DNA of 20,000 nt, from the IMG/VR virus record IMGVR_UViG_3300014057_000711. The stretch is one strand, 5' to 3'. The notes beneath the pieces were generated by a model. That model was not told the origin of the DNA. It saw only the letters and a program-made list of their open reading frames with translations, and did not search any database. Source of the stretch: an uncultured virus (IMG/VR IMGVR_UViG_3300014057_000711). Its lineage: Duplodnaviria; Heunggongvirae; Uroviricota; Caudoviricetes. The first letter of the stretch is position 1. The number at the start of each line of letters is the position of its first letter. This document shows, piece after piece, positions 8,039 through 18,694 of the stretch. The position numbers and the translations under genes were made by a program.

Positions 8039-8070
8039 CAAATATAGTGTGTTTTTATGACATTCGCAAA
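8039..8070 (-). promoter_or_regulatory. Bacteroidetes sigma-A promoter TTTG-N20-TATATTTG
   Basis: + strand CAAATATA at 8039-8046 and CAAA at 8067-8070. Confidence 0.65.
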
Positions 8071-8136: not shown

Positions 8137-8240
8137 GGTTTACTCATGGTTTACTTTGTTAAAAAAATGGCATCTGATAATCAGCGGTTTACAAAGGTAT
8201 GGTTTACTCTTGATTACTCATGGGTGCGCAAGTGGTTTAA
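8137..8240 (+). repeat. Cluster of GGTTTAC direct repeats
   Basis: GGTTTAC at 8137, 8148, 8186 and 8201, GGTTTAA at 8234; interrupted palindrome CTGAT-A-ATCAG at 8174-8184. Confidence 0.6.
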
Positions 8241-8346
8241 TCTTGCAGTGTTGAGTCCAGACGCAGACCGCCGCCATTGATGTTGACTATAACAAGCTGA
8301 TGTGGTGCCTCATACCGCCGCTTGACTGACAGAATTGCCGTGTCAT

Positions 8347-8544
8347 TGAATTTTGTGAAACATATTTTTACTTAGCAAAGTTAGCGCATCAGACCACCGC
8401 ACAAGGACAGGCCCTGGCGGGTTTTGCTGAAAAATCTCCACACCTGCGGGTAGTATTTTTCGGCAAAATCCTTGTGCTCGCAGTGGTCTCTACAGATGCG
8501 CACCTTATTGCACGTAAAAATTATGTTTCACTTCACAAAATTCA
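8347..8544. promoter_or_regulatory. ~200-nt long imperfect hairpin, candidate single-stranded-DNA promoter
   Basis: Six nested complementary segments; - strand TAACTTTG at 8376-8383 faces a mismatched segment; ends 6 nt before the ATG at 8551. Confidence 0.6.
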
Positions 8545-8550
8545 TCTATC

Positions 8551-8781
8551 ATGACACAGCAATTCTTCAACATCAGTCAAGCTCCAAGCCAAGGGGCACA
8601 AGAGAACATTCATGTCAACATCAATGACGGCTCAGCCAATGTATGGCTCGGTGATACTCCAATCTGCACTACAAACTGCAAGGATGCACTCGAACTTATA
8701 GTGCAGACTCTGGCTGACAAGTTCGACGCAAAGCTTCCTGCCAGGTCAGAAATGATATACGACACAGTGATGCAATGGTGA
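8551..8781 (+). CDS. Small acidic hypothetical protein (76 aa)
   Basis: ATG after an A-rich leader, protein-like composition, flanked by the long hairpin and a 13-bp inverted repeat. Confidence 0.75.
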   Translation: MTQQFFNISQAPSQGAQENIHVNINDGSANVWLGDTPICTTNCKDALELIVQTLADKFDAKLPARSEMIYDTVMQW

Positions 8782-8787
8782 TTTCTC

Positions 8788-8819
8788 ATCAGTCCTCCCG
8801 TCAAATCGGGAGGACTGAT
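8788..8819 (+). terminator. Perfect 13-bp inverted repeat after the small ORF (terminator or 3' stabiliser)
   Basis: ATCAGTCCTCCCG-TCAAAT-CGGGAGGACTGAT; no clear U-tract. Confidence 0.5.
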
Positions 8820-8889
8820 AGCAACCGACAGATGTGAGAAGAAAGGACAGCTGGACATTACCAATAGAGACCGCCATCTTTTAAACGCA

Positions 8890-11410
8890 CGCTGCCCCTG
8901 AAGGGGGAATCGTGGCACGCAGGACTGCCACGGCAGCACTCGCCGGCATCGGCAGTCGCTGGCATCAGCGAAGGGATGTGCATCCCACAGAGAGAGTGCC
9001 GCCCCATTCCATGCCGCAACCCTGCACTGCGTTACGGGTTGCGCCGTGGGCTGGGTCGCACCGCTCATTCCGCCATCGGCACACACTACGGAGGCTCCCG
9101 TGGGGCATCGGCCGGCCTGGACCCATGGCTGAGGCCCTGCGCTTATGCAGGCTCCGCTCCCTTGCCGTGGCGACACCCGAGTCGTCTGCGCCGACATCGG
9201 GTATCGCCACTCGTCCGCTACGCTTGCACGCTTGTCCTCCCGATGCCGCACTGCGCCTCCCAAGCTTGTCGTTATCACTCCATTGCCGCTGGCGGGCGGT
9301 GCTGCTGGCACACTCCCTTACGCTTATGCCTACGCGAGCGTTTCACTCTGCAGATGCCATGCTCTTAGTGCTGCACAGGCAGTCCACTCGTGCCATATCA
9401 GCGGCAGAGTGGTGTTCAGTTCCGTGAACTTCACGTCGTTGTTTGTCCGGCGATGCTGGCGCATCGTCGGGTGGAGGCAGCCTCATGCCACACCGACACC
9501 CGTTCCCTCGGCCCGGGTATCGGTGCCGCAGTCGGCATCACATCGCAGCTCGCCGTCCCCACCGCTACGCTTCGGGGGTGCGAGCCGCCAATCAGCACGG
9601 CACGCAACCTGGCGGTGCGAGCCGATCGCCCACATTCCCACCCCTCATATTGCTGCGGCAAGCCTTGCAATCCCTCTAAGTGCCATGACGAAGGCACGCA
9701 GGACTGCCAACACCTGCCATTGCGCCGCCGGCCTCCGTCGTGGGTCAGGCTGGCTCCTGGAGAGTGCTGCATGCCATGGCGCAACCCTGCACTTCTCTTC
9801 ATTTCGCTACGGGTTGCGCTATGGATGACGTACCTTGTTCCCACTGCGGGACAAACGCTCCGAATGAGGGCATGGCGCTTGACGGCCCAGCTTCACGCAG
9901 ATGGCGCTACCTTTCCGCACCGACACCCGAGATTCCTGCGTCGCCGTCGGGTGTCGGCACGGGTGCGCCACTCGCCGTTTCGCTGTTCCTGCGCCATACA
10001 CTCATTCCAAGCTTGACAACACAAGTGTATCATTGTCTCGAAGTGGCGGTACTCTACGCACACTCCATACGCCGCTTGACCCACGAGCGCTGGCGCTCTG
10101 CGGTCGGCAGTCTTCATTTGTGGAGGCAGTCCACTCTGTTGCCGTCGCCATAGCAAAGCGGTGTGCCACTGGCGTAGCACGCATTTGTTCGAGAGAGTGG
10201 CGAGCACTCTCAATCGCGATGCCTACGCTCGTGAGCCGTGCCTGCGGCGGTCGCTGCGCGCGCTTCGCCTGAAGGCCGACGCAGTGGCATGGTCGTCGTT
10301 ACGATGTGTGATGTTGGGCTGCGCTCAACATCTGTACACACATCTTCACTCCTGAACGCACCGACACCCCGCGCCTGCAGCAGGTCGCAGGACTACGCCG
10401 CGCCCGTCATTACGCTCCGTCGTCAAAAGTGCTCTGGTCGTGCCTGATGTGGGACGATGCGGACTCGCATCCGGCTCACGCCCGATGCTTGACGGTGGTC
10501 AGTCCGCAACGCCCCACGGCACTCGCTCGCACACTTGCCGCCGTCTCTCACTCCTATGCTTGCTGACGTCCTAGCTGACTTGCCACAGGCTTTCGCTTGC
10601 GCTCAGGGGTGTCGGTGCAGTATGCCATTGCATCCAGCCTCCAGGCTGTCGCCCACTTGCTCTCTTGAGGCACAGGCTCACGCTCTCCAGCATCGTTGGG
10701 GCAGCTGCGCATTGTCGCCAGGCTGTCTGTAACATGAATACTATCGCCTACACTTGTTACTATTACCTTCATCACTTCAAGCTGGCTTGACATGATTACG
10801 GCTGAAAGCGGTGCTGACACGCTCAATCGAAACCTTCTCCTGCGTCAAAGGTTCGCTTTCGCACGTCAGCGGATTTACCATGCAATCGCCTCATGTGCCA
10901 TGATGCTTTTACAGCTGCGCATCGCCGCCAGTTCATCGGAACAATAATACTATCGCCTTCACTTGTTAATGTCGCCTTCATCACGTCAAGCAGGCTTGAC
11001 ATGATTACGGCTGAAAGCGGGGCTGACACGCTCAATCGAAACCTTTTCCTGCGTCAAAGGTTCGCTTTCGCACGTCAGCGATTTGACCGCACAATCGCCT
11101 TGCTCGGCTTGCCTCGCTTGCATATTCCGATAACGAAAATCGCAGTCGCACGGAGTCGCTACGCAGGGCATCGGGGGGTCTTCCCAGACAGGGACGGTGG
11201 ACACCCCCGTACCCCCGTAAAAGGCTGTATAACAGCCTTGTGACTTCCGCAAAGGCGGAAAGTCGGAACAAACCGTGAACGCCGTTCGACGCTCACGGAT
11301 GATTTACGGTCGAAATCTTTGACCGTAAACGAGAAAAACATGCTTCAGGTAGCATTTAACGTCACTGCGTGACTGGGAACACATTAAGACATGGCTCGGC
11401 TTAATGTCTT
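8890..11410. other. GC-rich, hairpin-dense non-coding region
   Basis: All ORFs here are Arg/Ala/Cys/Pro-rich and non-protein-like; many inverted repeats and internal duplications. Confidence 0.75.
10702..11100. repeat. Tandem duplication, two copies, ~209-bp period
   Basis: 10702-10891 matches 10912-11100; the 88-nt core (10784-10871 vs 10993-11080) has 2 mismatches. Confidence 0.92.
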
Positions 11411-18320: not shown

Positions 18321-18343
18321 ATACGCATAGAAATGTGCATGAC

Positions 18344-18694
18344 AGTGTAACACCTACTGTTACACCTGTGGTCACACTTTGTGTGGCCTTTTTTTGTTTG
18401 TATGGTCATCATACGGAATCACCGATGGTTGCACTGGTCAGCGCACCTTTGGTTTCACATAAAGAAGCACTAAATGTAGCACTAAAAGTCATACTGAATG
18501 TTACACATTCTGTTACACTTATTGTCACACTTTAGAGTTTTCATTTTTGTGTGTATAGTCATCATACGGCACCACTGATGGATGCACTAGTCGGTGCACT
18601 TATGGTTTCACTAAATGTAACACAAAAAGTTATACTCAATGTTACGCATTTTGTTACACCTATGGTTACACCTTTTGTCACACTTATAGTCACA
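18344..18694. repeat. Degenerate 12-bp-period repeat array nested in a 153-bp tandem repeat
   Basis: GTCACACTT at 18371, 18524 and 18677; the units differ by whole 12-bp indels. Confidence 0.85.

Follow-up and report, generated by a model that had tools for sequence, protein, structure and literature searches.

The hairpin at 8340..8557 (- strand) of the 20,000-nt stretch of DNA analyzed here (the window) is likely, judging from its sequence and its relatives, to be a promoter that works in single-stranded DNA (ssDNA) as Frpo does and that serves the Bacteroidetes primary sigma factor. In the proposed mechanism, the - strand, once single-stranded, would fold back on itself. Its left arm would then supply the -33 and -7 boxes as the non-template strand, and its right arm would provide a partly mismatched template. 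RNA polymerase would begin at approximately 8513-8514, exit at the base of the hairpin, and transcribe the open reading frame (ORF) at 8551-8781; the fold-back transcript may also leave a primer for second-strand synthesis. In duplex DNA, the boxes would turn leftward and ORF 8551 would lose its fold-back promoter. We infer the formation of the fold, the rightward transcription, and the passage of the - strand in single-stranded form from the features described below.

Folding energies and an alignment of homologous elements identify the hairpin as an imperfect fold-back structure of approximately 200 nt with a three-way junction, and it is a real feature of the window. As DNA, 8340-8560 folded with -58.3 kcal/mol on the + strand (z -11.2) and -60.1 kcal/mol on the - strand (z -10.9), in each case better than all 200 shuffles; as RNA, the two strands gave z values of -9.7 and -8.4. 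The nested arms seen in a first-pass annotation made from the letters alone were recovered at 8347/8532, 8355/8514, 8384/8495, 8391/8483, 8399/8469, and 8422/8455, as was the apical CC-GCA-GG of the - strand at 8443-8449, and the stem reaches 8340-8557. The inner stem and the highly conserved apical part with its C-GCA-G triloop occupy 8422..8468 (- strand), whose columns in the family alignment are partly fixed by the search pattern. The DNA fold also contains a side hairpin at the junction that was absent from the first-pass annotation (8412..8421, - strand), with a GNNA-type loop on the - strand. The segment described as lying opposite the -7 box was found at 8502-8511; on the - strand, 8502..8513 forms the template side facing the box and the start region, to which it is an imperfect complement, and read on the + strand it does not amount to a -7 box. 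Rfam covariance models gave no match near the gathering score for the window or for 12 homologous loci. An 18-nt inverted repeat (94%) flanks the hairpin at 8270-8287 and 8614-8631, with one arm within ORF 8551.

Homologs of the hairpin form a family. Its core matched 6 plasmid records among 72,556, all from Bacteroidales, and the plasmid copies are intergenic, ahead of PcfK/PcfJ or JAB/ArdA clusters. Scanning species genomes with a sequence pattern gave at least 123 stretches, and the matches listed span Bacteroidales, Flavobacteriales, Cytophagales, Sphingobacteriales, and Chitinophagales. Earlier loci and the scan matches listed together made 130, of which 123 had full flanks and 61 remained after removal of those more than 80% alike; 9 of the 61 were then removed by eye as chance pattern matches with a weak fold and a divergent core, leaving a 52-member set. 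A model search found the element in 34 of the 41 genomes of one genus (that of G009). Among 83 loci examined, the nearest downstream ORF lay on the same strand as the hairpin in 65 of 76. Its products include SSB with DUF932, PcfK, DUF6943, DUF6266, JAB, a methylase-helicase, and Rep3, and ardA, ardC, radC-JAB, and methylase genes also lie downstream of family hairpins; products were assigned for 69 selected ORFs, about one third of which had no family match. Family hairpins precede establishment-type genes (ssb, ardA, pcfK, JAB, methylase), in keeping with the first reading of the window. Three contigs of approximately 6 kb (L018, L045, and L048) have a hairpin near each end, with 5.7 kb separating the two copies, and the interval holds one gene for a 1,700-aa methylase-SNF2 helicase and an 83-aa ORF, as in a small circle or a tandem unit.

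The -7 box TAACTTTG was confirmed on the - strand at 8376..8383, in the arm that becomes the non-template strand when the - strand folds. It matches TAnnTTTG, the -7 consensus of the Bacteroidetes primary sigma factor according to PMC7366714. A -33 box-like CTTG, which the first-pass annotation had missed, lies in the paired stem at 8402..8405 (- strand), 18 nt from the -7 box. The box had been described as pre-melted, and this holds for its 5' end, where a T and one A are open, and not for CTTTG, which stays paired (0.95-1.00). In the - strand ensemble, the probability of pairing was 0.01 at 8383, 0.74 at 8382, and 0.09 at 8381, and positions 8372 and 8374 were also open. The modeled box of the window would therefore be only partly unpaired, or about half melted; across the family, mean pairing over the box was 0.40-0.69, with 0.93 at the last G.

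The boxes occur almost exclusively on one strand of the family. On the anti-gene strand, 24 of the 52 members have an exact -7 box accompanied by a -33 box at a distance of 17-23 nt, against a mean of 0.22 and a maximum of 3 in shuffles. Without the -33 requirement, the -7 box was found in 37/52 members on the anti-gene strand and in 1/52 on the sense strand, and a search for a full sense-direction promoter (-7 and -33) yielded 0/52. Among 50 fold-anchored members (36 of the 52-member set and 14 of 18 prophage copies), 39 have an exact -7 box and none has its exact mirror on the strand of the gene. A perfect palindrome would give the gene an ordinary promoter; the mirror is spoiled, so the family avoids such a promoter. 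In the window, sense boxes with one mismatch occur at 8454 and 8522. The element thus has its host-sigma boxes within the stem, where they face the gene solely after folding, and forms a long stable stem-loop in one strand, both of which are features of an Frpo-type ssDNA promoter. Two further exact TAnnTTTG boxes are found on the - strand at 8039-8046 and 8192-8199, aimed at the 3' end of the lysis genes.

The stems covary, and their pairing is tied to one register. In the 37 of 52 members with near-standard spacing, 81.4% of cells were paired, compared to 68.4% in shuffles, and the structure derived from the consensus of these members showed 164 two-sided changes, compared to 66.6 in shuffles, a value reached by 0/500 shuffles under a null that ignores the relatedness of the members. 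Slid registers of the consensus structure were 35-57% paired. RNAalifold applied to a MAFFT alignment gave only 12 pairs. The loops point to DNA and to the - strand, on which the 52 apical loops are GNA (33), GNNA (8), GNAB (9), or other (2); the first G, and not the A, was imposed by the search pattern. GNA, GNNA, and GNAB are stable DNA loop motifs. The side hairpin, which lies outside the search pattern, has a GNA or GNNA loop in 18 of 36 cases. DNA energy was lower on the - strand in 48/52 members. Isolated mismatches showed a strong G.T asymmetry toward the - strand when pooled (64 versus 28) and a weak one when counted by member (24 versus 13, with 15 ties; p 0.10). The window copy is opposite: the warning in the first-pass annotation that a T-G pair favors folding of the + strand is correct for this copy, which has 2 isolated G.T mismatches on the + strand versus 1 A.C.

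One family member, on plasmid p5482 of Bacteroides thetaiotaomicron VPI-5482, could be compared with mapped transcript starts, using the transcription start sites (TSS) tabulated by Ryan et al. 2020 in supplementary file 3 of PMC7366714. On the - strand, the table lists one at 31349, seen in mid-log phase only, which is 4 nt past the box of the element. The p5482 box is therefore a real promoter, recognized by polymerase in vivo, and because this leftward start is used during growth, the p5482 element is not silent in duplex DNA. Frpo-type promoters are reported to be silent in the duplex, according to PMC12672017. For the right (3') arm of the p5482 hairpin, the parts of the table covered list no start during vegetative growth. 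ArdC, whose gene lies 400 nt from the hairpin, has its own starts in that table at 31781/31783. The start predicted for the window at approximately 8513-8514 applies the 4-nt distance between box and start of this homolog. Of the two observations that the first-pass annotation had set against its own reading, a leftward transcript from the box and stems without covariation, the former has a counterpart in the p5482 start and the latter was not borne out. Six motif strings from members of the ICE type matched 0 rows of the table, an uninformative outcome because the chromosome of this strain may lack such copies. The plasmid has the classic leading-region layout, in which the relaxase lies on one side of the presumed oriT and the hairpin and ArdC lie on the other, approximately 6 kb from it.

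We reasoned about the transferred strand from the orientation of relaxase genes, comparing the 150 hairpin matches listed (16 more were unlisted) with the best 131 of 157 relaxase matches. Among the matches listed, 62 hairpins lie within 35 kb of a relaxase of ICE size (376-600 aa), and 60 of these 62 (37 of 39 by locus, the ICEs being related) are co-oriented with it; the other 88 of the 150 have no relaxase of this size inside 35 kb. Relaxases of IME size gave no orientation signal among the matches listed (3 same, 4 opposite). Homologs are not confined to leading regions, where the first-pass annotation had proposed to look for clustering: 22 of the 60 co-oriented ICE copies among the matches listed sit behind the relaxase, and other ICE copies listed lie on the tra side at distances of 14-34 kb. 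Relaxase genes typically enter the recipient last, as stated in PMC11541004, and the mob operon of CTnDOT is transcribed divergently from tra, according to PMC3809561, a layout also seen in an element examined here. Given the co-orientation with the relaxase and the rule that the relaxase enters last, the transferred strand would be the template of the hairpin-led genes. The folding strand may therefore be the transferred strand, by a rule that is general and does not derive from these elements.

The first-pass annotation did not note the setting of the hairpin. The window is a fragment of a tailed prophage, not of an ICE or plasmid, with DUF6712, holin, amidase, tape-measure, and tyrosine integrase genes, and its relatives have capsid, portal, and terminase. 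In one relative, G003, portal and TerL were weak matches, a Clp-like protease was present, and the capsid was recognized by atlas features (0.99). This gene content is that of a Caudoviricetes-type tailed prophage. A relaxase was looked for, without a match, in 124 ORFs of G003 and G004 (Pfam) and in 88 ORFs mostly of G006 and G003 (NCBIfam). The defense cargo of G003, G004, and G006 (L220-L230) comprises BREX, restriction-modification, TIR, ApeA-HEPN, and UmuDC, with weak Zorya-like and DarT matches. A search of a phage collection gave one unannotated match to the region, none for DUF6712, and none for the tape-measure query. Imperfect repeats with 12-nt and 141-nt spacing occupy 18343-18690, in the interval that separates the integrase from the last tail gene.

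Within the window, the hairpin follows the lysis genes and precedes a 76-aa ORF on the + strand (8551..8781), the proposed target, with an A-rich leader of approximately 37 nt. The ORF had 9 matches including the window's own protein and no match in Pfam, PHROG, or NCBIfam; its structural model, of low confidence (pLDDT 52), had no PDB match at E <= 0.001, and atlas scores were 0.76 or less. A short perfect inverted repeat without a T-run on the + strand, read from the sequence just 3' of the ORF (8787..8819), is a possible terminator or processing hairpin. In one RNA run with a small share (0.12), assembled contigs cover 8442-8800; such contigs carry no strand, start, or end and are therefore no evidence of transcription. 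The stretch 8800-11100 is GC-rich (54-65%), with skews opposite to those of the coding genes and no convincing ORF. It ends before a G-rich site with an inverted repeat, located between the lysis module and the tape-measure gene (11164..11235, + strand), toward which ORF 8551 points; relatives have a variable stretch of 0.5-3 kb of similar kind between their lysis genes and this site.

Of 80 DUF6712 loci, a good number of which are short fragments, 27 contain a family hairpin, always on the DUF6712 strand; the HMM used was built partly from the same loci. Those in G003 and G004 precede ArdA, others precede small ORFs of unknown function together with a MutS-I-like gene, and one precedes a protein that was judged ArdC-like by eye and had no NCBIfam match. 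Such hairpins ahead of ArdA in complete tailed prophages raise the question of a single-stranded entry route. In one copy (L009, 643-2507), a reverse transcriptase gene, possibly of a diversity-generating retroelement, lies just upstream of the hairpin in a prophage that bears the tape-measure gene.

The main job of the hairpin might be to prime or delay second-strand synthesis during transfer or phage replication, as an ssi/sso-like signal or a roadblock, with transcription of the neighboring gene secondary. A single element can have several co-oriented copies, including copies behind the relaxase and up to approximately 49 kb from the G-rich site of prophages; ArdC of p5482 is set apart from its hairpin and has its own promoter; and promoters of F are reported to act in priming and as roadblocks. 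We nevertheless consider this quite unlikely as the main role, because the copies mostly lie just ahead of a same-strand gene of the establishment type, and priming is in any case compatible with an ssDNA promoter, which would use the same strand and the same polymerase. That the box is an ordinary duplex promoter whose leftward product is an antisense RNA or a small RNA, and that the hairpin serves a rightward mRNA as its structured leader, is suggested by the leftward start at the p5482 box, by the good folding of the + strand RNA, by the 2 G.T mismatches on the + strand of the window copy, and by the fact that 33/52 apical loops can be read as the RNA-type cUNCGg on the + strand. Against it, 17 tetraloop variants match DNA motifs on the - strand and do not fit cUNCGg on the + strand, a leftward transcript that begins outside the hairpin leaves the conserved pairing unexplained, neither the co-orientation with the relaxase nor the spoiled mirror is predicted by a duplex promoter, and the hairpin lacks an Rfam match. 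We regard this explanation as very unlikely.

The block of hairpin and ORF in the window could also be a relic captured from an ICE, with selection lost. ORF 8551 is tiny and rare, the 2.4 kb beyond it look noncoding and differ among relatives, and in most of the related prophages this position has no hairpin. Such a relic would hardly be expected to have an intact stem, however, or to be kept together with its ORF and the G-rich site in a second locus (L001); moreover, the DUF6712 loci with a family hairpin carry it elsewhere, on one strand and in G003 and G004 ahead of ArdA, and two Bacteroides prophages with a different gene order have it too. We give the relic the lowest probability of these explanations and prefer the ssDNA promoter.

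Several known systems resemble the element in part. The early promoters of phage N4 are short hairpins for the virion RNA polymerase with a GNA-type loop on the template strand. The phage setting and the short GNA-type loop on the template strand are common to both, whereas N4 has its own polymerase and short hairpins and the window element has 200 nt and host-sigma boxes; the scan of relatives revealed no phage RNA polymerase. The sso/ssi of rolling-circle plasmids is a strand-specific hairpin recognized by the host RNA polymerase. Family hairpins, unlike these, usually lie just before a gene and occur several per element, and no rolling-circle initiator was found. The ssDNA promoters of conjugative plasmids are Frpo1/Frpo2 (ssp1a/b), ssp2, and ssp3 of plasmid F and ssi1-3 and the class 1-3 ssDNA promoters of ColIb-P9/pESBL, as described in PMC11541004, PMC12672017, PMC13478746, and bioRxiv 10.64898/2026.01.09.698686. 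They share with the window family a long imperfect DNA hairpin ahead of ssb, ardA, and methylase genes, boxes in the stem, and a gene template on the strand inferred to be transferred. The window family differs from them in having Bacteroidetes -7/-33 boxes rather than -10/-35 boxes, in its own conserved apical core and side hairpin, in its occurrence beyond the leading region and in tailed prophages, and in one member that is leftward-active in duplex DNA. With its TAnnTTTG/TTG boxes and plasmid matches that are all from Bacteroidales, it is set apart from the IncF/IncI Frpo/ssi sequence family by boxes and host.

The working mode would thus be Frpo/ssi-like in a different sequence family, and the setting in Bacteroidota and prophages appears to be new. 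The word "Bacteroid" is absent from the main texts of PMC11541004, PMC12672017, PMC13478746, and bioRxiv 10.64898/2026.01.09.698686, and the openly accessible literature searched gave no account of the hairpin family, of ssDNA promoters in Bacteroidota or prophages, of DUF6712, or of Bacteroides nic sequences; the Frpo-like list that supplements PMC11541004 might include members from Bacteroidota. Bacteroidota ICEs carry antibiotic resistance and other genes across gut communities. The ssDNA promoters characterized to date are those of Proteobacteria. A definable family would offer a handle on how Bacteroidota elements establish in a new cell: the hairpin would mark the transferred strand from sequence alone, the genes behind it would be candidate anti-defense genes, and p5482, in the model strain B. 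thetaiotaomicron VPI-5482, is a ready test case.

For the prophage, our leading guess at the source of ssDNA is mobilization by a co-resident conjugative element; other conceivable sources are an ICE close by, through Hfr-like transfer, and a stage of replication that is single-stranded. After removal of 7 chance or unrelated pattern matches and 3 duplicates, 38 distinct loci remained, and in 31 of them the G-rich site lies ahead of the tape-measure gene. Hairpin and site are co-oriented in 12/12 distinct elements that have both, of which only L001 is discriminating, because nearly all genes elsewhere share this orientation; in L001, hairpin, ORF, and site are opposed to the terminase. If the site is an oriT, the window hairpin lies 2.6 kb into the leading region with the right polarity. 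Against an oriT, other prophage copies lie 17-49 kb from the site, no plasmid matched the site, and it was not evident before mobA or bfmA (two elements, by eye). Four Bacteroides prophage regions also lacked the site; in 41 genomes, the short site pattern was near background and not visibly beside relaxases. There is a weak HNH match near the terminase genes. An HNH gene near terminase genes suits a cos site. On balance, cos or pac is slightly more probable for the site than an oriT, and some other function is less probable than either.

Relaxase-less integrated elements with an oriT (iOriT) are described for Pseudomonadota genomic islands in bioRxiv 10.64898/2026.01.13.699239 and PMC5704250. 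The prophages are similar in being integrated, carrying defense cargo, and lacking a relaxase, and they would likewise use the conjugation machinery of a helper; they differ in being complete tailed prophages in which the oriT is only a candidate. There are hints, short of proof, that phage-like elements can enter new cells as ssDNA. A wider proposal is that the widespread relaxase-less tailed prophages of Bacteroidales also spread as ssDNA, with co-resident conjugative elements nicking the G-rich site in trans as their oriT, the - strand entering first from that site, and fold-back promoters switching on ArdA, ArdC-like, and small proteins of no known function (such as that of ORF 8551) ahead of second-strand synthesis; we consider it doubtful.

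Just before the G-rich site, a 161-nt direct repeat occurs at 10731-10891 and 10940-11100 (89% identical, 209 nt apart), and contigs of other runs skip or replace one copy. In one prophage subgroup (L208, L209, L213, L215, L216, and many of L236-L273), the site is abutted by a box-like half element that lacks its partner arm. In G034, a short inverted-repeat element that is G-rich and has arms 86-110 nt apart occurs in approximately 60 copies; it is probably REP- or MITE-like.
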